From positions 1 to 55,857 of IMG/VR virus record IMGVR_UViG_3300029309_000050: a stretch of DNA of 55,857 nt. The stretch is one strand, 5' to 3'. Of this stretch, positions 3,853-35,250 are shown piece after piece. The notes below the pieces were generated by a model. The model searched no databases, was not told where the DNA came from, and was given only the letters and a program-made list of their open reading frames with translations. The DNA is from a virus. Lineage: Duplodnaviria > Caudoviricetes. How positions within the stretch are numbered: position 1 is the first letter of the stretch; each line of letters starts with the position of its first letter. The position numbers were made by a program, and so were the translations under genes.

Positions 3853-4293
3853 TTATCTGTGTTTATCTTTAATCATATCATCTATAGCTTTATTATAAAC
3901 TTTATCAGTATATGATTTATTATTATAAAATATACTACGCTCGCTAGTAGGTAAATCCTCTTCAGCAAGCATTATTCTATATATACGAGATATAAGTTGA
4001 CTACATTTGAATGATGTTTTGTATATACTATATTTTATAGTTGTTCTATTTCTGTGGCGCCATACTTCAATCCAACCTTGTCTTCTTAATCTTTCCCACC
4101 GGTTTTTATCCCAGCTATAAGTATAAGTGCCTTCAATAAATTCATTACGTGTAAATCTATTTTTACAATCTAAATATATTAAAAGTTCAAGATCTGAATC
4201 ACTTAGGCTATAAGTTTTACAGGCCCATTTACGAATGAGCCTATAGTATTTTAATAAATTTAATTCTTTTATGTCGGTAGCAGTTAGTCTCAT
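3853..4293 (-). CDS. Putative winged-helix DNA-binding protein
   Basis: LSDSDLELLIYL...WERLRRQGWIEVW pattern resembles MarR-like wHTH; overlaps groES stop. Confidence 0.5.
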   Translation of the reverse strand: MRLTATDIKELNLLKYYRLIRKWACKTYSLSDSDLELLIYLDCKNRFTRNEFIEGTYTYSWDKNRWERLRRQGWIEVWRHRNRTTIKYSIYKTSFKCSQLISRIYRIMLAEEDLPTSERSIFYNNKSYTDKVYNKAIDDMIKDKHR

Positions 4294-4547
4294 TCAACCA
4301 ATACTATATCGCCTAATTTTAAAACATAGTATAAATGTTCATTTAATTCTATACCATGCCCTGCATGCTTGTCATAATGAATTATATCATTTTTTTTAAG
4401 CATATCTGCCATAGGCCCGGATGATACTACTTTACCTTTTAAATACCTTACGTCTTTATTTTGATCTTCCGTAAGTTCTAACCCACCTATCTTTTTAGGT
4501 GGCTCTTTTATTTTTTCAACAATTACGTAATAACTAAGCGCTTCCAT
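4290..4547 (-). CDS. groES: Co-chaperonin GroES-like
   Basis: YVIVEK...GGLEL...KGKVVSSG...DIIHYDKHAG...DIVLV; adjacent to groEL. Confidence 0.85.
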   Translation of the reverse strand: MEALSYYVIVEKIKEPPKKIGGLELTEDQNKDVRYLKGKVVSSGPMADMLKKNDIIHYDKHAGHGIELNEHLYYVLKLGDIVLVE

Positions 4548-6099
4548 TTATCACTCTTACATTATTAATTACACAATCGGCTGAAAATATGGTATTCACA
4601 ACGCTAACTGCATTTTTTAATGCTGTTTTAGTTACAAGAACTGGATCTATGATTCCAGCTTCAACCATATTTATTTCTTTATTATTTACAACATCTATTC
4701 CAACGCCTGGTTTACCAGACTCATAATGTTCTAATGCTGCATTATCGAGTATTGCTGCATAAGGGGAGCATATAGCTTTTAACAATATTTCTTCACCTTC
4801 GTTTTCAGGAGCAATAAAATGTGCTGCATCTAATAATGCAACACCCCCGCCTGGAACAATCCCTTCTTGCAGTGCGGCTTTAGTTGCATATATAGCGTCT
4901 TCAACTCTGTCTTTCTTTTCTTTCATTTCAACTTTTGAGTCCGCTCCAACTTTTATCATCGCTACTTTACCGTTTAGCATAGCTAACCGTTCTTGCAGCT
5001 TCTTCTTAAAGTATGGATTTTTTTCTTCAGCAACTTTATTTTCAACTATATTTATACGTTCTTGTAATATTGTATTTTGACTAGTTATTTGTAAAACAGT
5101 GTTAGTATCATCGGTAATAGATTTTTTACATTCACCTAAAACATTTGGTTCAATTAAATCTAAATCATCGCCAAGTTCTTCATTTATAACTATAGCACCT
5201 GTTAATATAGCTAAGTCCTCAATTGTTTCTTGTTTAGTTGGGCCAAAGCCAGGTAAATCTATAATATTTACTTTTATATTACCTTTAACTTTATTTGCTA
5301 ATAAAGCTGCTTTTGGCTGCTGTTCTACATTTGCAACAATTAATAAACTTCTTTTTTGTTTTATAACAAACTCTAATACTTTTTGTATTTTACGAATATT
5401 AGATATAGGTGATGAAACTATTAATACATAAGGATTATGCAATTCAGCTTTACCTTTATCTTTATCAGTTGCAAGATAGGGTGATGTTAAGCCACAGCTT
5501 ATTCTTGTTCCTTCAACAAATACTACATGTGTTTCGTGTGTATCTGATTCTTCCATAAGAACAACACCGTCTTTACCAACTTTTGAATATGCTTCTGCTA
5601 TTATAGCACCTAGCTCTTTATCGTTATTACAGCTAATAGTACTTACATTATGTAACATTTTTTTAGTTACTTTTATAGCTTTATTATCTAAATACTTAAT
5701 TACTTTATTAGTAGCAGTAGTTATGCCTTCTTTAATAGGTCTTACGCTCTGAGCATATTTTTTTTCGTTTGCTAAATGTAATAGTGATTGAGCAAGCACA
5801 GTAGCTGTAGTAGTACCGTCGCCTGCTTCTTTCACTGTATTTCTAGCTGCTTCTTTTATTAAAGTTGCACCTATATTTTCAACCGGATCATATAAGACTA
5901 CGGATTCAGCTACCGTTACACCGTCTTTTGTAATCACCGGTTTACCTAATGCATCTTCATATATGACACATTTACCTGAAGCACCTAGGGTTGACTTCAC
6001 TGCGTTAGCAAGTTTATCAACCCCGTGCATTATCTTTTCTTTAGCTTCTGCCCCGAAAGACAGATTCTTAACTATCTCACTCGGATTATTATATTCCAT
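4534..6099 (-). CDS. groEL: Chaperonin GroEL (phage-encoded)
   Basis: ITKDGVTVA, AGDGTTTATVLA, GIVPGGG, GIIDP motifs; no GGM tail. Confidence 0.97.
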   Translation of the reverse strand: MEYNNPSEIVKNLSFGAEAKEKIMHGVDKLANAVKSTLGASGKCVIYEDALGKPVITKDGVTVAESVVLYDPVENIGATLIKEAARNTVKEAGDGTTTATVLAQSLLHLANEKKYAQSVRPIKEGITTATNKVIKYLDNKAIKVTKKMLHNVSTISCNNDKELGAIIAEAYSKVGKDGVVLMEESDTHETHVVFVEGTRISCGLTSPYLATDKDKGKAELHNPYVLIVSSPISNIRKIQKVLEFVIKQKRSLLIVANVEQQPKAALLANKVKGNIKVNIIDLPGFGPTKQETIEDLAILTGAIVINEELGDDLDLIEPNVLGECKKSITDDTNTVLQITSQNTILQERINIVENKVAEEKNPYFKKKLQERLAMLNGKVAMIKVGADSKVEMKEKKDRVEDAIYATKAALQEGIVPGGGVALLDAAHFIAPENEGEEILLKAICSPYAAILDNAALEHYESGKPGVGIDVVNNKEINMVEAGIIDPVLVTKTALKNAVSVVNTIFSADCVINNVRVINGSA

Positions 6100-10262: not shown

Positions 10263-10458
10263 AGTAAATAACATGAAAGAGCTTTTAGAGTATGTAGCTA
10301 ACAAACAGAAAAAACAAACTCACGACCACTACGAAATAGTGAAAGTATATGGTCCTTGCAAAGGCATGGGTAATAGAAGATATAAAGTACCACAAAAAAG
10401 TACTTTTAGAAAAGGTAAAAGCTATGCTTATAATAAGAAATGGACGTACACGAACTAA
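10219..10458 (+). CDS. Early hypothetical protein (start uncertain)
   Basis: ORF; GPCKGMGNRRY motif; stop in motif A copy 5. Confidence 0.55.
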   Translation: MTTSQINIVLMKLNKVNNMKELLEYVANKQKKQTHDHYEIVKVYGPCKGMGNRRYKVPQKSTFRKGKSYAYNKKWTYTN

Positions 10459-10482
10459 ATACGACTAGTATTGGATAATATA
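10450..10482 (+). promoter_or_regulatory. Motif A copy 5
   Basis: ACGAACTAAATACG-N9-GGATAATATA. Confidence 0.75.
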
Positions 10483-10502
10483 ATAAATTAAATTAAATAA
10501 TA

Positions 10503-10745
10503 ATGAGTAGATTAAAAACACTTTATGATAGACTTAATACTAATTTAAAGTCTGAATTGCAAGCTAGCGCTAGAAAATATGACACAGCTAAGAGATTAAA
10601 GTATAAACTCATGAGTAGTACATTATGGTATGATTTATCAGTTGATGATATTAGCCAGTTAATGAGTTATTCAGGACTATATACAAATGAAGTAACTGCT
10701 AGTGATGTACTATATGGCACTAGATTTATTAAACAAGATAAATAA
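10503..10745 (+). CDS. Early hypothetical protein
   Basis: ORF after motif A. Confidence 0.65.
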   Translation: MSRLKTLYDRLNTNLKSELQASARKYDTAKRLKYKLMSSTLWYDLSVDDISQLMSYSGLYTNEVTASDVLYGTRFIKQDK

Positions 10746-10786
10746 GAGGAGCGCACTAAATTGGTAAGCCGGAATCCCAGTCCTCT

Positions 10787-10892
10787 TGCGTGTTATGGTA
10801 AATATCAAAAGCGTACACAAGGAATAAATGAGTGTATGTGCATTAAAAGTTCTGATGTAGGATAATGAGGTTCGAATCCTCAGCACGCGCTA
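10787..10892 (+). ncRNA. tRNA-like RNA 1 (acceptor stem + T-arm, no D stem or anticodon arm)
   Basis: TGCGTGT/GCACGCG stem, TGAGG-TTCGAAT-CCTCA T-arm, TATGGTA after acceptor strand, inner stems ATATCA/TGATGT and GCGTACAC/GTGTATGT. Confidence 0.6.
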
Positions 10893-10904
10893 AAAATTAA
10901 GAAT

Positions 10905-11132
10905 ATGAAGAAATTTAAAGATACTAAATTTAAAGAACTAGAAGCTAAAGGTTTAATCAGTGAAAAGCTTAAACAAATTGATACCTTTGAAGCTAAGTAT
11001 TCACCGTGCACCGAATCAAAAGCAATGAGAAAATGGTGTACTGATTATGAATATCGTAAAAGAGAATGGCAATTTAGAAATAGCGTTGCCGAATATGCAA
11101 AGTATAACGCACATAAAGCATTTATGAAATGA
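10905..11132 (+). CDS. Early hypothetical protein
   Basis: ORF with A-rich leader; KWCTDYEYRKREW. Confidence 0.65.
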   Translation: MKKFKDTKFKELEAKGLISEKLKQIDTFEAKYSPCTESKAMRKWCTDYEYRKREWQFRNSVAEYAKYNAHKAFMK

Positions 11133-11308
11133 ATAATTTAACAGATTATATGGCAGTCGGATTAGCCGAAGGCTTTGAAAAAGGTACTGAAGACCAAGTA
11201 ATTGAAGCTTGGCAGTACCTACACGACACAGGTTTAGCTTACAAACTACAAGGTTGGTTTGGTAGGACAGCTCAACGATTAATAGAACAAGGAATTATAA
11301 ATGAATAA
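11129..11308 (+). CDS. Small early protein (59 aa, not in ORF track)
   Basis: MNNLTDYMAVGLAEGF...AWQYLHDTGLAYKLQGWFGRTAQRLIEQGII; overlaps both neighbours by start/stop. Confidence 0.75.
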   Translation: MNNLTDYMAVGLAEGFEKGTEDQVIEAWQYLHDTGLAYKLQGWFGRTAQRLIEQGIINE

Positions 11309-11701: not shown

Positions 11702-11890
11702 ATGAAATGTAAATGTCAAAATATAATTCCGCCAGGTCGAGTAGCACTAGGTTACAATATATGTGTCAAGTGTAGTACCACACAACAATACAGCTATGTA
11801 CCTATAATAGCTAACAAGCAAGTACTCGAAGTACAAATTGTGTCACCCGAAGTAAGTGCTAGCGTGCACAAGGCTTGGCGAAGAAAATAA
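11702..11890 (+). CDS. Small zinc-finger protein (DksA/TraR-like C4 finger)
   Basis: CKC...IPPGRVALGYNICVKC resembles the IPxxRL...CxxC finger. Confidence 0.55.
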   Translation: MKCKCQNIIPPGRVALGYNICVKCSTTQQYSYVPIIANKQVLEVQIVSPEVSASVHKAWRRK

Positions 11891-11893
11891 AGG

Positions 11894-11952
11894 TGAAAAA
11901 GAAATAGGAGGCAATTTAAGAGCTGAGACCATTTGTCACACTAACTTTTTCA
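11894..11952 (+). ncRNA. Putative hairpin RNA element with shared 15-mer
   Basis: TGAAAAAG/CTTTTTCA outer stem, GGCAA/TTGTC inner stem, loop contains TTAAGAGCTGAGACC (11916-11930). Confidence 0.4.
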
Positions 11953-11955
11953 TAC

Positions 11956-12080
11956 AGGTGAGGTTTAAGGTTGGAAGACTAAAACGTCGTACCCACAAAT
12001 GCGTGGTCGTTGGCGTTGAAGTAAGAAAGACAGTATAAACAGAGAAATCGTACGCCATTCCAGTGCTGTCCGCCTCACCT
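11956..12080 (+). ncRNA. Putative structured ncRNA
   Basis: Perfect 8-bp closing stem AGGTGAGG/CCTCACCT; inner TGGCGT/ACGCCA and CCAC/GTGG. Confidence 0.45.
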
Positions 12081-12087
12081 TTTATAT

Positions 12088-12196
12088 AGACATGATATGG
12101 TATTAAAGAGATAACACTAATGTATGCTGGAACAGTTAAGACACACGCTATCGTATAAGAACTCTTACGCAGGTTCGACTCCTGCCATGTCTTCTA
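12088..12196 (+). ncRNA. tRNA-like RNA 2 (acceptor stem + T-arm, no D stem or anticodon arm)
   Basis: Perfect AGACATG/CATGTCT stem, GCAGG-TTCGACT-CCTGC T-arm, ATATGGTATT after acceptor strand, AAGAG/CTCTT connector helix. Confidence 0.65.
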
Positions 12197-12206
12197 AATT
12201 AAAATT

Positions 12207-26796: not shown

Positions 26797-27975
26797 TTAT
26801 CTAAATGTAAAATTTATTCCAAGGTTTGAGTTAAACATTTCTGAATCCCAAAATTTAGTATATTCACCTTCAACAAATAAACCAATTGCTTTACTTATTT
26901 TAACACCAAATACCAAACCAGCTTGGTAATCAGACCATTGTTCACCTTCTAGTAAATCGTTATGTCCACCTTTACCCCAACTATTTCTATGTAGATAACT
27001 AAAATCTTCGTTACCTTGTACGTATTTATGATAAGGTAATATCCAGCTGCCGTATGTGTGAAGCCAGAAATTATTTTTATAATGATAAAAATCAAATCCA
27101 ACAATAGGTGCAACTTCAGCAAAAGCATCCAGCTCAGCCCAAGCTTCTTTATTATATCTATTTAATAATCCAGGCATTATAAGGTCTCTGAACTGTCTAT
27201 CAGTCCAAGCTACTATATTACCCTCTGGATCAGTCCAATACCAATCAAAAATACTACCGCCATTTTCATCTGAACCTTGATACCACCAATCGTCATAACC
27301 GTATTCAAACCCTAATGTGTACCACGGATTTAACGCATCGCCATTTTCATCTTCCATGTTTAGCCATATTTCTACAGGATTATAACCGTAAGGGCGTTGA
27401 TGTGTTCTATATATTGCGCCAGCAGATATACTAAACTTTTTTCCGATAGGTAATCTAGCTCTTATTTCACCAGACATATATTCAAAATCTATTTTGCCGG
27501 TTTCTCTAGCTTCAAATTTAGCTATATGATAATTACCAGTATGTCTAACAAATAATCTTTTATTATCAAATTCATTACCATTATGTCTTTCCTTTTCCCA
27601 GTGTAACAAATATTCTAAACCTTTTACAGCTGATGTAGGTGCTGATAAACCAACTTGTTTTTCTACTTTATTATCTCCTGTCCAAAAATTACCAGGTTTT
27701 ACCTCATAATCAAAACGAGCTAATTTACGAATACCAAATCCATATCTATAATTAAATGGATGATATTGAGCTCTATCCTCAACTTGAGGTATACCGTAAA
27801 AATCTTCGGGATCTGTACGTATAAAATAATTTGGCTGCACAGCTTGTGCATTTTCTATATTACCAGCAGCATAAAATGTACCGTACTTTAAGAAATCGTT
27901 ATATACTTCTTTAAAAAATTGACCGTTAATATTAAAGGATATTAATAGTATTAATATGGTTAAAATATTTTTCAT
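26797..27975 (-). CDS. Exported, probable outer-membrane beta-barrel protein
   Basis: Signal peptide; aromatic-rich alternating strands; C-terminal LGINFTFR resembling a beta-signal. Confidence 0.6.
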   Translation of the reverse strand: MKNILTILILLISFNINGQFFKEVYNDFLKYGTFYAAGNIENAQAVQPNYFIRTDPEDFYGIPQVEDRAQYHPFNYRYGFGIRKLARFDYEVKPGNFWTGDNKVEKQVGLSAPTSAVKGLEYLLHWEKERHNGNEFDNKRLFVRHTGNYHIAKFEARETGKIDFEYMSGEIRARLPIGKKFSISAGAIYRTHQRPYGYNPVEIWLNMEDENGDALNPWYTLGFEYGYDDWWYQGSDENGGSIFDWYWTDPEGNIVAWTDRQFRDLIMPGLLNRYNKEAWAELDAFAEVAPIVGFDFYHYKNNFWLHTYGSWILPYHKYVQGNEDFSYLHRNSWGKGGHNDLLEGEQWSDYQAGLVFGVKISKAIGLFVEGEYTKFWDSEMFNSNLGINFTFR

Positions 27976-28854: not shown

Positions 28855-31800
28855 TTACCAACTTTTTTTACCCCAGGTATTTTTACCCCATGGATTTTTT
28901 CTTTTTTCTTTTTTATTTAAATCTACGTCAAGCTGCCATGCCGGCCAGCCTAACGCAATCATAATTTTTTTCCAAAACTCAACATCTGCTCTTGACATAT
29001 ACATAACATCGTCCATAGTTTGTACCGCTCTATCAAAAGGTATATTTGTTCCAGCAGCGGCTAATTTTGCAATAGCCATATTAGCGGGATTTTCAAATGA
29101 TAATCCTTCGCTTTTAATTTTTTTCATTTCATAACTAAATGTATATCCCGCTTCTCTTAGCTTTTTGTATTTTGAACTAACAGGCGGAGATACATCAAAT
29201 ATATTATCCGCAACTTCAAAATATTTAGGATTAGATAATTCACTTTTTCTTATTACATCTCTAATCATATTTTTACCTACCGCGGCAAAATTACCCATAA
29301 ACCCAGATCCTCTTAATATAGAATCCGCCATTTGATTTGCTATATCTGCATATTTTTGTCTTTCTCTTTCAGTATCTACATCATCATCAAATCCCATAGC
29401 GATTAGAGCTTGCTGCATTGCATTAAAGAAAAAGTTTTGTACAAATCCATAATAAGCTATTTTAGACATATTGGTTTTCCAATCCCCTCTGCCATTTGCT
29501 AAATCTTGTATAGCTCTTTTCATTAATCTATTGTATTGCATAGGCGTATTAGCAAATGCTAAAAGTATTCTTCCCCCTATGCTTGCTTGTTGTGCAGATA
29601 TTCTATCAGGTCTACTAGACTGTTGAGCTTCTTCAGTTAGTTCTCTAAAATCAGTAAAAGCTTTTTCTTGAGCTTCTTGTTCAGATAAACCTTGTTTTTC
29701 ATAAGTTTTTATTCTATTTCTATACATTGTTGCACCACCTGAAGCAATAGCAAAACTATCCGCAATTCTTGTTAATATAAACCCTTTGTCTAATAAATAA
29801 GATATAGCACCTTGTACACCACCTTTATTAGCCATCTCCGCTATTTCATTTTCATTAATATTAATTCTATTACCTCCTCTTCTATTTTGAAGATAACTAG
29901 AATTAAATATTGTTACGAAATCTTTCCAATATTGTGGCTGATTTGCAAATGCAGCACCTGCTCTTAATATATTATTATCACTCCAATTTATATAGTTTAC
30001 ATTAGATATTAATTGTAATACCGACGAGCGTCTATTAAGGAACATTATATTACCAACTGCAGAATTCAACCATATTAAATAATTATCAATACTTTTATTT
30101 CCTGTTGTTAATCTATTGTTGCCAGTTTTCATTCTTTTTAAAATATTTTGCAAAGCATCAACATAATTAGCTCCAAAAGCAGCCTCTAATTTATTATAAT
30201 TTTCTTGAGTAAATATAGCGTTTATATTTTCTTGCCATTTTTTTAAATGATATTCTCTTACGTTAGTCTGTATATTTGTTTGTAAATCTAAAGTTATATT
30301 ACCAACATCCCATGCTGCAGAAGGTTTTACATAACCTGCAGGACCATTTATTACTAATAATTGTCTTGCAAAGTCTCGTAATTCTTTGTTATCAAAAACA
30401 TATTTGTTAAGCATTTTATTGTCAGATTTAGTAAGGCCGGGTATGTCCATTCCTTGTTTATTCCAAATATAAACTCTTATTGCATCTTCAAAAGTAAAAA
30501 CTCCATCAGGTGTTTTATTACGTAATTGTTTAGGAACGTTACTAATTTTTTTCTTAAGCTCTTTCCATCTACTCATTAACGCAGCTCTTTCGTTATCTAT
30601 ATTTTCATTAGCTATGCCAAACGGCCTAAATAGATTATTTTTCATCCAAGCAAAAGCTTTATTTCCTTGCTCACCTTTGGGCAGTACTTGATACATTAAA
30701 CCTTGAAAATCTTCTGCGCCGTAAGGTATAAACATATTCATTATACCTGTTTTAGCTCTTTTTCCTCTTTTTCTACCTATAACTGGACTTATAACGGCGG
30801 CCGCATCAATACCTGTTGATTGTTCTATAATATTATTAAATTCAATGTCTAATTTTTGTGATTCTTTACTAAAATCAAGCATTCCTGTAGCTTTTTCAAA
30901 ATCCGGTCTTGAAAATAATATAGAGGCATCTAAATCTTTTCCTTTATTAACTAAAAAGTTACTTCCTCTTAATACTAAAGTTACTTTGCCATCGGCTCTT
31001 GTTCCGCTTGATCTTAAAGATATATATACGCCGGCTTTAGCATTAAATACAGGGACATTTAATTTTGATTGACCTTGGCCCATATAATATAAACCTTTAT
31101 TACCTATATATATATATTCTATACCTTTATCGCGATAAAATTTAGTTATTTTGCTAGCGTCCTCAAATACTATTCTTTGATTTCTTTTTCTACCGCTAAA
31201 TTCTTTTTTAAGTATATTCCAGGTATCTAAATCATATTCAGTTTGAGGAAATTTAAAAGGTATTTCTTCACCTTGTATTTCTTCAGCTCTTTCATGCATT
31301 TTAATATATATATCTAAATTTGCTGCAACATCTGGCAACATACTAAACAACTGCTTGTTTGTTACCGTAAAATTTCCAAGCTCATCTACTTTTATACTTC
31401 CACTTCCAGCTTGATCTGATCCGTTTAATTTAACTTCTACTGGAATACTAATTTTACCTTGATTTTTAGTTTCAATTATTAATCTAATATCTGTTCCTGT
31501 TGGTCCCATTTTACCGTCGCCTCTAGCTGTTAAAATATCAGATGCTTTATCGTTTATTACTTTTACTTGAAAAGCTTCAAAAGTTACTCCTTTAAATGCT
31601 TTTGGTACATTTAAACCTAATCTTTTAGCTTCATTAACTATTTGTTTATATACATTAGGAAATTTTTCTTGAATAGTATTATCTAATATAGCTCTTCTAA
31701 TTTCATATAATAGCTGCGCGTTATTAGCTTCTTTACTAAATTGAAAATCTACACCTCTATCAATTTTTGATGCTACCTGAGATAAATAATTGTCAGCTAT

Positions 31801-34800
31801 ATCTATTTCTTGCATACTAGCAACTACTTTAACTTTTTCAAGTATTGCAGGATTTCTTAATACATCTAATGTAGCATCAAATGCTATTTCTTGCGCTAAA
31901 CTTTCTGATAAAGCTGTTTTTCTAGCTCCTCTTGTAGAAGCTTTAACTTCAGGCCCAATAAAATAATCAATAAATTCTTGTTTAGTTATTTTCTTTTTCT
32001 TAAATATTTTATTTCCTTGCTGAGTTCTTTCTCTTAACTGTTTACCATTTTCATCAACAACTGGCTCTGCAAACGGAGCAAATCTTCTATTTATAGTTGA
32101 TTGAGGTAAAATATCATATATTAATTTAAAATTATTATCAAGAAAATTTCTATAACTTTGATCTGTTCCTAAAACACTATTAATAGTTGGTTTTAAAAAT
32201 GTTTTATAGTTACTAATTAATTTTTTCTTAAACTGATTTGAAGCAATATCCGGTAGTCTTGTCCCAAAAGTTTTTATTACGGCATCTCTAACCTTATCAA
32301 TAACATCTTGTGTTAAATTTAAAGATAATCTTAAGCTTGGTCTTTGTTCTTGCTCTTGTACTTCACTTGTTGTTATTGCTCCTGATATATTTTTTTGTTC
32401 AGTAATGTCTACTGCAAAATTCGTATCTAAATTTCTATTAGCTATTTCAATTACCCTAGAAGGTAAAAACTTATTTATATAAGCGGCTAATGGCACGCCG
32501 GAACCGGGGTTATAAGATCGTATTAAATCGATAACACCTCTTCTACCTGTTAATATATCATCAACAAGTATATCTTTCATAGTAGCAAAACCAGGAACGT
32601 CTCTGAAGCGTTGAGCATGTTTATTAGCCATGCCCTCATATTCATTTATTATATCTAAAGCTCCATCAAACCCTTTAGTTTCATATATATTTTGTATTTT
32701 ATTAGATATTTCGGATTTTTGTATATTATCACCAATTGCTTTAGCTTCTTTTACCGCTTTTAAATCTAAAGCCCCTAATACATCTTTATTTAGTTTACCG
32801 TCTTTAATGCTTTTATCATATGCTTTTAAAAAATTATAAACACCCCTACCGCTTCTAAAATCAATATTTTTAAATCCTTTACCTTTATATAAACTAGTTA
32901 AAAATTCTTTTATTGATTCTCCAAAATTTAAATCAAAAGTAAGCCCGCTCCCGGGTTTTGCAAGACCTTCTGAAAACACAGTTATATATTCTTGATAATA
33001 TTCTGAAGTACCTTTAACTTTGTTTTGTCTTTCCATTTCATTATCAGTCCATCTTCTTTGCCTGCGCGTTAATGTATTTCTAAAATCTTCAACAATTGTT
33101 TGTTGAGCCTGTGTATTACCTATCATTGCATTTAATATTGGATGCAATATTTCGTGAGAACCTACACCAACAGCGCCTAATTTTAAAGCAACATCTTCAT
33201 TAATAACTATTTGGCCTTTTCCAATAAATACACCATTAACACCGCTAGAATCTTTTATTGTTTGACCGCTTAAATCTTTTACTATTTTATTAAATTCATT
33301 AGTATTTTTTGCTCTTTTAATTTTTTTAAAACCTAATTGTTTAGCGGCAACTTCAGCAAATGTTATATTTTCACCATAATTTTTTGTAAGAGCTGTATTA
33401 AATATATTATTATTTTCCTCAACTAATTCGTTAATTTCTTTTTGAATAACCTTATCTAAACCAGCTATAGTTGTAATATCTTTTGTTTTATTTTCTTTTA
33501 TAAGTGCATTTATAGCATCAACATTTTGTGAATATTTTTGTAAATCAACTCCAGTAATATTTTCTAATATTAACCTATTTGCTATTTGTATTTCATTTAG
33601 TTTTTTAAGAACAATTGTATTTCTTCCTTTTAATGCACTAATTACATTCGGATTTCCAGCTGGGCCAATTTGTTTTCCATCTTTATCTTTACCCTTAAGT
33701 TGTTTAATTTTTTCTAATCTATCATTGTATTCTTTAAGTAAAGCATTTCTTTTTTCTCTAACAGTTGCTGGCATCATTAATTCTTGAGCCCTTGTATACA
33801 AAGTTTGATTAGATTGTAAAGTTTTACCAACTGTTGTTACACCCCCACCCGTAAATGTTCCTATAATACCTTCATCAATAATACTATAAATATCTTTTAA
33901 TATAGAGCCTTTAACTATATTTCCATTTTCATCTATTTCACCAAATATACTTCCTTTATTAAACGTTAGCTTGCCATTTTCAAATTTACTATCAAATGTC
34001 ATTCTATCATTTATTCTTGTTAAAATAGCTTGTCCTATTTCAGTAGCGCCTTCTTTTAATCCAACACCTATAACATCAATTACTTTATCACGAAGTCCTT
34101 TTTGCATTTCATTAACAGCTTTTTCTGCTGCTTTTTTTCCGCTGCCACCTAAAACATTTGCGCTTCTTAAAAATCTTCTTGTAAGATAAGCATCTGCAAC
34201 TTCAATTGCGCCCGTACCAGCAGCATTAATGCCTAATCTAAATAAACTTTTATCAGGATCTTTTTCAAATTCTTGTATAAATTTGTCAGCACCTAACCCT
34301 ATACCCATTGCTGCAGCAGTATATGGGTTCATTGAAGCTAAAGTATAAGGTAAACTACCTATTCCATCTGCAAATATTCTTCCACCAATCGTTGCCCAAT
34401 CAGCATCCATTCCTTTAGCTATTTCTTCAGTAATTGTAGTGTTATGTTGTTTAATATGCCCTTTTAAATATTCTTGAGCTTTATCAATATTTTCTCTGCT
34501 TGTTAATCCTGAAAAAGCACCTAAAGGACCTAAACCAGTTGACTCATAAAGTTTGTCTTGAGCTTTTATTGCTTGTTTTGCAATAATTCCAATCATTCTT
34601 TTTTCATTTGCAGATAACTTAGATTTACCCGCTTTATACTGTGTATACCATGAAAGACCATATATAGCGCCCATTTCTTTTAAATCGTTCATGTTATCAA
34701 AAACCATTTCAAGAGATGTATCTGCAAATTTAGGTAAAGCTTCAACTGCATTATTAAAAAATCCTCTTGGATCTTCTATTAGTCCTCTAGTAGCAGCATA

Positions 34801-35250
34801 CCCTATACCAATATTTTCTTCAGATAAAGTTGGTTCATCAGGTTGCGTAATTGCATCAAAAGCCCCTACAAAACCTCGACCTACTTCTTTTGCTGCTGGT
34901 TTACCTACATTTTCAAAAGCTATATTTGTAATAGCCTGCACTGGGCCACCAACAGGGTTACCTATTCCTCTTAATCCAGGTATAATATAATTCTGTCCTA
35001 CAGGAGAGTTAATTATTTCTTTTAATACACCCGAAAAACCACCGTCCGATTGTGATTCCGTATTTTCTTTCGTCGGCCCACTCTCTAGGCCTTGCTGAAA
35101 AAAATTAGCAGTATATTCGTCATTATATTCTATTTCTTTAAGTCCCTTAGACTGCATTTGTGCTAGATAAGCATCAAACTCCATCTCATATGCTTGTGCC
35201 GCTTGCTGTAACTCAGCTAGCGAATATAATTTTCCATTGTATTCGTACAT
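28855..35250 (-). CDS. Giant internal virion/ejection polyvalent protein (zincin, sigma-region-2-like and PD-(D/E)xK-like segments)
   Basis: 2131 aa, last of three ejection-type genes after the muzzle; HEILH motif, sigma2-like block, G.TFE...D...VEVK motif, helical C-terminus. Confidence 0.7.
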   Translation of the reverse strand: MYEYNGKLYSLAELQQAAQAYEMEFDAYLAQMQSKGLKEIEYNDEYTANFFQQGLESGPTKENTESQSDGGFSGVLKEIINSPVGQNYIIPGLRGIGNPVGGPVQAITNIAFENVGKPAAKEVGRGFVGAFDAITQPDEPTLSEENIGIGYAATRGLIEDPRGFFNNAVEALPKFADTSLEMVFDNMNDLKEMGAIYGLSWYTQYKAGKSKLSANEKRMIGIIAKQAIKAQDKLYESTGLGPLGAFSGLTSRENIDKAQEYLKGHIKQHNTTITEEIAKGMDADWATIGGRIFADGIGSLPYTLASMNPYTAAAMGIGLGADKFIQEFEKDPDKSLFRLGINAAGTGAIEVADAYLTRRFLRSANVLGGSGKKAAEKAVNEMQKGLRDKVIDVIGVGLKEGATEIGQAILTRINDRMTFDSKFENGKLTFNKGSIFGEIDENGNIVKGSILKDIYSIIDEGIIGTFTGGGVTTVGKTLQSNQTLYTRAQELMMPATVREKRNALLKEYNDRLEKIKQLKGKDKDGKQIGPAGNPNVISALKGRNTIVLKKLNEIQIANRLILENITGVDLQKYSQNVDAINALIKENKTKDITTIAGLDKVIQKEINELVEENNNIFNTALTKNYGENITFAEVAAKQLGFKKIKRAKNTNEFNKIVKDLSGQTIKDSSGVNGVFIGKGQIVINEDVALKLGAVGVGSHEILHPILNAMIGNTQAQQTIVEDFRNTLTRRQRRWTDNEMERQNKVKGTSEYYQEYITVFSEGLAKPGSGLTFDLNFGESIKEFLTSLYKGKGFKNIDFRSGRGVYNFLKAYDKSIKDGKLNKDVLGALDLKAVKEAKAIGDNIQKSEISNKIQNIYETKGFDGALDIINEYEGMANKHAQRFRDVPGFATMKDILVDDILTGRRGVIDLIRSYNPGSGVPLAAYINKFLPSRVIEIANRNLDTNFAVDITEQKNISGAITTSEVQEQEQRPSLRLSLNLTQDVIDKVRDAVIKTFGTRLPDIASNQFKKKLISNYKTFLKPTINSVLGTDQSYRNFLDNNFKLIYDILPQSTINRRFAPFAEPVVDENGKQLRERTQQGNKIFKKKKITKQEFIDYFIGPEVKASTRGARKTALSESLAQEIAFDATLDVLRNPAILEKVKVVASMQEIDIADNYLSQVASKIDRGVDFQFSKEANNAQLLYEIRRAILDNTIQEKFPNVYKQIVNEAKRLGLNVPKAFKGVTFEAFQVKVINDKASDILTARGDGKMGPTGTDIRLIIETKNQGKISIPVEVKLNGSDQAGSGSIKVDELGNFTVTNKQLFSMLPDVAANLDIYIKMHERAEEIQGEEIPFKFPQTEYDLDTWNILKKEFSGRKRNQRIVFEDASKITKFYRDKGIEYIYIGNKGLYYMGQGQSKLNVPVFNAKAGVYISLRSSGTRADGKVTLVLRGSNFLVNKGKDLDASILFSRPDFEKATGMLDFSKESQKLDIEFNNIIEQSTGIDAAAVISPVIGRKRGKRAKTGIMNMFIPYGAEDFQGLMYQVLPKGEQGNKAFAWMKNNLFRPFGIANENIDNERAALMSRWKELKKKISNVPKQLRNKTPDGVFTFEDAIRVYIWNKQGMDIPGLTKSDNKMLNKYVFDNKELRDFARQLLVINGPAGYVKPSAAWDVGNITLDLQTNIQTNVREYHLKKWQENINAIFTQENYNKLEAAFGANYVDALQNILKRMKTGNNRLTTGNKSIDNYLIWLNSAVGNIMFLNRRSSVLQLISNVNYINWSDNNILRAGAAFANQPQYWKDFVTIFNSSYLQNRRGGNRININENEIAEMANKGGVQGAISYLLDKGFILTRIADSFAIASGGATMYRNRIKTYEKQGLSEQEAQEKAFTDFRELTEEAQQSSRPDRISAQQASIGGRILLAFANTPMQYNRLMKRAIQDLANGRGDWKTNMSKIAYYGFVQNFFFNAMQQALIAMGFDDDVDTERERQKYADIANQMADSILRGSGFMGNFAAVGKNMIRDVIRKSELSNPKYFEVADNIFDVSPPVSSKYKKLREAGYTFSYEMKKIKSEGLSFENPANMAIAKLAAAGTNIPFDRAVQTMDDVMYMSRADVEFWKKIMIALGWPAWQLDVDLNKKEKRKNPWGKNTWGKKSW

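Follow-up and report, generated by a model that had tools for sequence, protein, structure and literature searches.

Transfer-messenger RNA (tmRNA) pared down to its tRNA-like domain (TLD) has previously been known from one mycobacteriophage and a few organelles. Mycobacteriophage DS6A is reported to encode little beyond this domain, and a DS6A-like TLD molecule is described as inhibiting tmRNA whether or not it can be charged, with titration of SmpB proposed as the explanation (PMC4131195; PMC11915505). tmRNAs without a coding sequence (CDS) are described from jakobid mitochondria, and plastid forms of about 65 bp from the Mallomonadaceae (PMC11915505; PMC3590771). Plant mitochondrial t-elements are presented as intergenic tRNA-like structures, thought to be cut by tRNA end-processing enzymes and thereby to set mRNA ends (PMC1920247). 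Among phages, tmRNAs are given for 402 of 18,146 genomes in one survey (PMC9004378), and one is reported for phage Calle (PMC8776804). Here we describe TL1, a tRNA-like element at positions 10787–10893 (+ strand) of IMG/VR virus record IMGVR_UViG_3300029309_000050, which was analysed at its full length (55,857 bases, estimated completeness about 87%; hereafter the window). We put the probability that TL1 is a real, selected tRNA-like RNA of this phage family at about 0.85–0.9; to judge from its sequence, it is probably a diverged, uncharged and TLD-only derivative of tmRNA. The family is found in a large group of marine phages whose hosts are probably Flavobacteriia, and reduction to the TLD is here the property of a whole family in a very common marine phage group.

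Like the DS6A RNA, TL1 is phage-encoded, is close to a bare TLD and has no tag reading frame, but host phylum and phage type are different (the comparison is with published statements about DS6A), TL1 lacks G3:U70 and carries a hypervariable insert of 56–79 nt, and it belongs to a family of several classes in many uncultured marine phages. The organellar CDS-less tmRNAs are likewise tmRNAs cut down to the tRNA-like domain, but they are single-copy and organellar and co-occur with SmpB; t-elements are tRNA-like and lie between genes as TL1 does, but in a eukaryotic organelle, with no sequence relation to TL1, whose own processing is only putative. The tRNA-Met(CAT) genes of related phage contigs share with TL1 the strand, the genomic slots, the type of T arm and the N73-CUAA trailer, whereas TL1 lacks a D stem and an anticodon arm and is called by no program. 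Phages phi38:1 and Calle (Pervagoviridae) belong with the phage of the window in one broader group of flavobacterial podophages (terminase identity 37%) and have a tmRNA ending in ACUA, but that tmRNA has an mRNA-like part where TL1 has none, and the Rfam tmRNA model RF00023 misses TL1. The open-access literature searched gave us no account of this family, of TLD-only genes that are diversified and multi-copy, or of members lacking alanine identity.

Structure and orthologues of TL1

TL1 is situated in a 159-nt gap separating two small early open reading frames (ORFs; 10503–10745 and 10905–11132) on the same strand. Its acceptor strands (10787–10793 and 10883–10889) can be paired in two registers. 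In the first, UGCGUGU and GCACGCG form 7 bp with a G:U pair at either end, giving the canonical 12 stacked pairs and C as the discriminator; in the second, GCGUGU (10788–10793) and GCACGC (10883–10888) form 6 bp followed by G10889 and CUAA, giving 11 stacked pairs with G or A ahead of CUAA, in agreement with the class 4 elements described below and with the family trailer. Position 10889 is the discriminator in the second register and in the first pairs with U10787, as an optional seventh pair. An initial annotation, made from the sequence alone, had recorded a 7-bp acceptor-like stem, the absence of the G3:U70 alanine determinant and a 3' end reading CTA rather than CCA. The stem is recovered, as 7 bp with terminal G:U or in the 6-bp register; position 3:70 is G-C (6-bp register) or C-G (7-bp register) and never G:U, in the window and in all orthologues; and the trailer (10890–10893, CUAA) encodes no CCA, the window sequence ending in G-CUAA (or C-UAA) rather than A73-CCA, with CTA at 10890–10892.

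Directly after the acceptor 5' strand comes a D-loop analogue, UAUGGUAAA (10794–10802), which stands without a D stem, as had been noted, and whose GG is expected to dock on the T loop; AAAUGGUUAG and AAUGGUUAA in related elements are of the same motif class. The minimum free energy (MFE) fold draws this segment into a weak alternative UGGU/AUCA pairing, removal of which costs only 0.9 kcal/mol. The anticodon arm is missing too, and a hypervariable middle section of 63 nt (10803–10865) replaces the D stem, the anticodon arm and the variable arm. The long interrupted helix formerly assigned to the place of the anticodon arm does not hold up: the MFE fold (−25.9 kcal/mol, z −2.1) has two hairpins in the middle of TL1 (10811–10839 and 10840–10858), possibly closed by a weak UAUC/GAUA helix, and this segment is replaced in the orthologues. 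The T arm (10866–10882; UGAGG-UUCGAAU-CCUCA) has a 5-bp stem stacked on the acceptor and a 7-nt loop of the GGUUCGAAUCC type, and GGTTCGAATCC (10869–10879) is the sole exact copy of that sequence in the window.

Immediately upstream is a predicted stem-loop (10744–10786, + strand; closing stem AGAGGA...UCCUCU) whose 3' end falls exactly at the start of TL1, and which may be the shielded 3' terminus left on the upstream mRNA once RNase P has cut. It also holds AAUUGGUAAG, and because this resembles the D-loop motif of the family the stem-loop could be the remnant of another element.

Orthologues were sought with an exact 22-nt query from the 3' half of TL1 in IMG/VR and in JGI metagenomes. IMG/VR yielded no matches, and the JGI metagenomes yielded seven: two identical to the window, three variants (contigs L237, L238 and L239; L-numbers label related contigs and X-numbers sequencing runs) and two in unrelated GC-rich coding sequence. 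The window and these three contigs make up the four distinct variants of TL1. The upstream hairpin and the first 22 and last 38 nt of TL1 are kept in all three contigs, and the hairpin, which differs at 5 of 44 aligned positions, travels with TL1 in each of them. The 22-nt 5' core with the acceptor 5' strand is identical in all four variants even though the adjoining insert is replaced, this segment being 56 nt long in the window against 79 (L237), 72 (L238) and 74 nt (L239), and largely different in sequence; in a DNA contig from run X7, 21 nt are inserted after 10808. At 10866:10882 in the T stem the window and L239 have U-A, L237, L238 and the X7 contig have C-G, and a contig from X5 has the intermediate U:G, a compensatory change in the T arm that was described as canonical at the outset. 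Position 10889 is G in the window and A in three of the four distinct variants, which gives A-CUAA.

TL1 is recognised by none of the standard programs. ARAGORN finds no genes in the window under default settings and nothing at TL1 in mitochondrial mode or in an intron mode limited to 120 nt, and Rfam at gathering cut-offs makes no tRNA or tmRNA call for it. Across the window RF00023 matches TL2, the paralogue of TL1 described below, and nothing else (16.1 bits against a cut-off of 47), and neither RF00023 nor the rest of Rfam matches the TL1 orthologues at E ≤ 10. No confident tRNA or intron-containing tRNA is therefore called by Rfam or ARAGORN, in line with the original view that this is not a normal tRNA. 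The only call obtained with introns allowed is an artefact with a 777-nt 'intron', and a tRNA-Leu(taa) at 10811–10890, obtained at a 70% threshold, is noise, this setting producing eight calls on both strands in 1.8 kb. A T arm with a TTCGANT loop and 7/7 acceptor closure occurs twice in the window, as TL1 and TL2; 200 first-order Markov simulations gave 0.02 on average, and none of them (0/200) reached two. Taken on its sequence features, TL1 is not a tRNA, because the D stem and anticodon arm are absent and the corresponding region is unconserved, nor is it a working tmRNA, since a tag frame and alanine identity are both missing and RF00023 matches only TL2 in the window.

Both window elements contain short AUG-initiated ORFs on the + strand within their inserts, of 10 codons in TL1 (10828–10860) and 12 codons in TL2 (12119–12157), which are probably chance occurrences in AT-rich sequence. 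The statement that TL1 has no room for a tag ORF is correct to the extent that there is no tag frame, and incorrect in that a 10-codon ORF does fit; as a tag this ORF was rejected, since its frame is kept in L237 by way of a 3-nt insertion and is gone in L238 and L239. None of the 52 translated elements of at least 70 nt contains a tag peptide ending in AA. The insert was also considered as an antisense guide and rejected, no significant complement to the TL1 or TL2 insert being present elsewhere in the window.

A family of tRNA-like elements and its relation to tmRNA

The primase-helicase of the window has 553 relatives in IMG/VR, and the comparisons use the best 80 of these loci. The 80 loci were scanned for the structure, and 18 of the resulting elements were used to build an alignment (A2) and then a covariance model (R1); an earlier broad pattern scan, which gave 118 mostly unrelated loci, was not used. 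At E ≤ 0.1, R1 has 55 matches in 81 sources, true tRNA-Met genes among them. All 55 are intergenic and on the coding strand of the early genes, the median distance to the ATG ORF that follows is 18 nt, and in 50 of the matches, again including true tRNA-Met genes, N73 is followed by CTA. Strong elements, defined as those scoring at least 40 bits with R1, are present in 29 of the 37 loci that extend at least 8 kb upstream of the primase gene. Relatives have up to three elements per locus, of several classes, and the window has two.

Most of the strong matches (33 of 38) are of one kind, type A, with GGG...UCC-A, that is, G1-C72, G2-C71, G3:U70 and A73. The type A layout is GGGNGUG, a stemless AAAUGGUUAG-like loop, a connector helix enclosing a variable insert of 20–70 nt, the T arm, CACNUCC, A and CUAA. 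Beside the fixed G3:U70, pair 4:69 varies (C-G, A-U, G-C and U-A); compensatory changes are seen in 11 of the 15 modelled pairs, and none of 500 shuffles reached the observed covariation score. Covariation, which the initial annotation had proposed as a check of the structure, is accordingly found both in type A and in the T-stem pair of the TL1 orthologues. Type A aligns with RF00023 from position 1 to 374 with 314–326 middle positions deleted, at 33.4 and 35.5 bits (E = 6e-10 and 8.5e-11; cut-off 47). The tmRNA-TLD layout first recognised in TL1 is supported in this way by its relatives, in that TL2 and type A match RF00023 over 1–374 with only the middle deleted and the tmRNA of phi38:1 ends in ACUA. 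Because its alanine identity is fixed, the type A sequence argues for a charged RNA acting in trans.

TL2 (12088–12197, + strand), the paralogue of TL1 in the window, has an AGACAUG/CAUGUCU acceptor, AUAUGGUA as the D-loop analogue, a T arm GCAGG-UUCGACU-CCUGC and U73-CUAA, and scores 54 bits with R1 (E = 6e-12). With A1-U72 and A3-U70 it has no alanine identity and is closest to type B of the relatives (A1-U72, U73), and by synteny it fills the genomic slot taken in relatives by a G3:U70 type A element. Minimal elements of 44–45 nt consist of a 6-bp acceptor, AAUGGUUAA, the T arm and A-CUAA; 44-nt examples are found at L237 1497–1540, L174 3581–3624, L176 3758–3801 and L184 4233–4276, the first of which matches the Rfam tmRNA family end to end at 24.7 bits. 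Class 4 elements begin with AACUAG, have a 6-bp acceptor placed directly on a 5-bp T stem and end in A-CAAA, and in L138, L177 and L212 their T arm is the 17-nt T arm of TL1. TL1 itself shows the traits of the family: its acceptor runs straight into an (A/U)AUGGU-type loop, its trailer is N73-CUAA and it lies between genes on the early-gene strand. As it is unrecognised by the Rfam tmRNA family and lacks the alanine identity set, we regard it as a diverged derivative and not a typical member of the tmRNAs.

Three features of the loci connect the elements with tRNA maturation. In L138 and L177 the class 4 trailer (4–5 nt) adjoins the first G of type A, as in tRNA gene clusters, so that a cut at this junction would be needed to form the mature 5' end of type A; in L125 a tRNA-Met occupies the slot of TL2, behind 131 nt at 97% identity; and N73-CUA is common to both kinds of gene. 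From these we infer that the enzymes which mature the phage tRNAs also mature the elements.

ARAGORN detects 25 true tRNAs in the related loci, mostly Met(CAT), and neither a tmRNA nor any of the elements. Since the family members are all unannotated, missed by ARAGORN and below the Rfam cut-off, standard phage annotation passes over them. A blastn comparison of a type A element with GenBank phages matched only the T arms of ordinary tRNAs, and a host origin was considered and rejected: a search of 185,579 species genomes for the type A 3' half located it in six contigs of three metagenome-assembled genomes (MAGs) and in no recognisable host tmRNA gene.

The corresponding genes are also unannotated in the GenBank records of the nearest isolates. 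Phage phi38:1 (NC_021796.1 about 26803–27164, minus strand; L257 404–765) has a full-length tmRNA of about 360 nt that scores 87.6 bits with RF00023, above the cut-off, and is unannotated in RefSeq, where three small 'hypothetical protein' CDSs are annotated over or beside it. Its 3' end is CCUCC-A-CUA and not ACCA, CCA being encoded nowhere in this phage group, and its 5' GGGGGCGACUGGUUUUGAC is similar to the GGGGGUGAUAUGGUUUUGAC subclass of type A. The same tmRNA gene is found by ARAGORN in Calle_3. Both phages also have an unannotated 74-nt tRNA-like element (NC_021796.1 15677–15750, minus strand, between gp023 and gp024; MT732434.1 54370–54443, plus strand) with GGAGGU/ACCUCC, A-CUAA and a UUCAACU T loop, for which R1 gives 29 and 25.6 bits and neither ARAGORN nor Rfam at E ≤ 1 gives a call. 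R1 scores in phi38:1 and Calle_3 are in the tRNA range only, while Flavobacterium phage elemoE and Cellulophaga phage phi18:3 have no R1 match.

The most economical reading of these sequences is a series leading from a phage tmRNA to the TLD-only type A and on to further diverged paralogues. It can be followed in nature from the full tmRNA (phi38:1) through TLD-only forms with alanine identity (type A) to those without it (TL2, TL1 and the 44-nt minimal elements), and makes it possible to test what a tag-less tmRNA can do on and off the ribosome, and whether phage early transcripts are cut by tRNA-like modules. Such experiments are feasible because two cultured Cellulophaga phages, phi38:1 and Calle, have both the full tmRNA and the 74-nt look-alike.

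Two further structures were noted among the elements. The 197-nt spacer upstream of TL2 contains a closed structure (11956–12079, + strand; AGGUGAGG...CCUCACCU) with an MFE of −36.3 kcal/mol (z −2.05) and no match in Rfam; its counterpart in L125 is 97% identical over 131 nt and is followed by the tRNA-Met. Contigs from the X5 RNA library cover it at a summed depth of 155–241 compared with about 14 alongside, an excess that may reflect sharing among phages, and a GTG-start ORF overlapping it (11856–12038) may be spurious. In MW202828.1 (L225), the closest GenBank relative, there is an unannotated tRNA-like element at 532–631 (R1 26.8 bits) with a real D arm, a normal T arm, and an 8-bp helix with a large loop replacing the anticodon arm.

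Processing and possible roles of TL1

TL1 would be transcribed within the polycistronic RNA of the same-strand early array; co-transcription is suggested because the element has no promoter or terminator signal of its own. Counts of such signals around the element do not exceed those in shuffled sequence, the single 'terminator' is the T arm of TL2, and a Bacteroidetes −7 promoter motif is not enriched. Host RNase P would then cut at the TL1 5' end, beside the conserved upstream hairpin, and host 3' processing would strip CUAA before the CCA-adding enzyme finishes the end, as for the phage tRNA-Met. We consider it fairly probable that TL1 is excised by tRNA maturation enzymes in some such way, and excision would at the same time sever the early mRNA. 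Once released, TL1 would stay uncharged because G3:U70 is absent, would mimic the tRNA-like domain of tmRNA and would titrate SmpB. This role is chosen because of the DS6A precedent as it is described (PMC4131195; PMC11915505), and we propose it only tentatively as the main one.

A number of observations weigh against this account. None of the window ORFs compared with Pfam (60) or PHROGs (21), in a genome about 87% complete, was found to encode SmpB, a CCA-adding enzyme, a peptidyl-tRNA hydrolase, an RNA ligase or a tRNA-processing function, and processing, CCA addition, expression and SmpB binding of TL1 are all steps that we infer. In 10600–11000, Rfam at E ≤ 10 gives no match of TL1 to tRNA, tRNA-Sec, tmRNA or organellar CDS-less tmRNA. 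The model R1, built from related phages as the initial annotation had advised, does find TL1, with 22.2 bits (E about 9e-4 in the window, filters off), but true tRNA-Met genes score 20–27 bits in a pooled search, so that family membership rests on the motifs, the trailer, the class 4 T arm and the genomic context. The elements in A2 and R1 were pre-selected for perfect stems, which inflates the percentage paired and leaves the compensatory changes unaffected; the 100% pairing of acceptor and T arm in the 18 sequences is therefore not independent evidence. The TL1 orthologues are close relatives with a single compensatory pair, and for this reason the conservation of the core has little statistical power. 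TL1 also lacks the GAC...(G/A)AC junction nucleotides beside the T arm that are common to type A and the tmRNA consensus, which makes SmpB binding less likely for TL1 than for type A. RNA-library contigs from one sample (X5, X12) do cover 10458–10736, 10740–10893 and 10903–11153 at similar depth, but these are no proof of transcription, as the libraries may hold DNA and contigs hide RNA ends; the break at 10736/10740 coincides with a variant having different upstream sequence, and the uncovered 10894–10902, like the lack of coverage of TL2 in X5, is uninformative.

Nearly as likely as SmpB titration is that TL1 serves only as a cis-acting processing signal in the manner of a t-element, the excised RNA having no role of its own. 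The upstream mRNA would then end in the 10744–10786 hairpin and the downstream ORF would have a leader of about 12–15 nt. The enzymes that process tRNA ends, RNase P and RNase Z, use the acceptor, the T arm and the GG loop, and these are the conserved parts of TL1, the rest of which varies or, in other elements, shrinks to the 44–45-nt forms. A signal of this kind is also consistent with the intergenic, coding-strand position of 55/55 matches at a median of 18 nt from the next start, with a conserved hairpin stopping exactly at the TL1 5' end, with loci of relatives that contain as many as three elements, in slots where a tRNA-Met may stand instead, and with the lack of an aminoacylation identity set in TL1, and it has a precedent in t-elements as reported for plant mitochondria (PMC1920247). 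It accounts less well for the retention of G3:U70 and A73 in 33 of the 38 strong matches, given that pair 4:69 covaries; an element that only directs cutting would need neither to be fixed, which suggests that at least part of the family acts in trans.

Action in trans is also the substance of a wider proposal, which in its combined form is unlikely: the elements could be a diversified kit of anticodon-less 'top-half' tRNAs derived from phage tmRNA, in which TL1 is a trans-acting RNA with a target of its own. Type A would be an alanine-accepting mini-tmRNA that frees stalled ribosomes without tagging, and the TL1-like paralogues, uncharged or differently charged, would be a scaffold displaying a fast-exchanged insert. 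On this view TL1 would be more than a relic or a place where transcripts are cut, and its target might be SmpB, a host defence enzyme directed at tRNAs, or an RNA to which the insert binds.

Slightly less probable again is that TL1 is a pseudogene, still recognisable but no longer under selection, a decaying paralogue either of a tRNA or of the type A mini-tmRNA. Decay would explain the loss of G3:U70 and A73 from the window sequence, the low R1 score and missing Rfam match, an acceptor/T stack that is perhaps one layer short (6+5), the rapid turnover of the insert, and the few sequences recovered with the 3'-half query (0 in IMG/VR and only five true matches in the JGI metagenomes). It would not be expected to leave 10866:10882 paired through U-A, U:G and C-G, or a 22-nt 5' core identical in four distinct variants next to a replaced insert, and class 4 elements in distant contigs retain both the 6+5 design and the T arm.

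It is also improbable, a little more so than decay, that TL1 is a sponge for a factor other than SmpB, such as EF-Tu, the CCA-adding enzyme, or a host anti-phage enzyme that attacks or modifies tRNAs at the elbow or the acceptor end. The occurrence of several classes with different acceptor stems in one genome would fit decoys of differing specificity, and an RNA without an anticodon loop could bind an anticodon nuclease yet escape cutting; against this, no defence or counter-defence context was found, and the literature searched gave neither an experiment nor a precedent for this family. Very unlikely, in our estimate, is aminoacylation of TL1 by an anticodon-independent synthetase, for action on the ribosome or as an amino-acid donor: the full alanine identity set in type A means that charging matters in the family, and A is present at 10889 in three of the four TL1 variants, but TL1 lacks G3:U70, any recognisable identity set, a D stem and a conserved variable arm. 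That TL1 is a missed ordinary or intron-containing tRNA, or a chance resemblance, can be dismissed, because the tRNA-Leu(taa) call belongs to the noise of the 70% setting, the default, intron and mitochondrial ARAGORN modes and the Rfam tRNA and tRNA-Sec searches are negative, the supposed anticodon region is replaced in orthologues, and chance is excluded by the single GGTTCGAATCC copy, the 0/200 simulations and the orthologues themselves. SmpB titration by an excised TL1 thus stays our tentative choice of role; of the earlier account of the locus, the observation is confirmed and the interpretation as a tRNA mimic is partly supported.

The phage and its host

Genes identified in the window with Pfam and PHROGs include those coding for terminase, portal, primase-helicase, ribonucleotide reductase, thymidylate synthase, MazG, and GroEL and GroES. 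The nearest terminase is that of an uncultured 'Caudoviricetes sp.' (62% identity), followed by those of the Flavobacterium 'elemo' phages (43%) and then of Cellulophaga, Tenacibaculum and Maribacter phages. The window comes from an uncultured marine podophage, and since the nearest isolates by terminase infect Flavobacteriia, its host is probably a marine member of that class. Two contigs of 'Bacteroidetes bacterium' MAGs, L233 (QQUU01000066.1, 56,091 bases) and L228, contain an exact copy of the 3' half of type A; these contigs are probably phage genomes that ended up in the bin of their host, and would provide a weak hint as to its identity. A 2131-amino-acid ORF (28855–35250, − strand) lies amid the structural genes of the window and has no Pfam match at E ≤ 0.001; it might be a virion RNA polymerase, such enzymes being known in related podophages. 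The GroES (Cpn10) and GroEL homologues are adjacent to each other, at 4290–6099 on the − strand.

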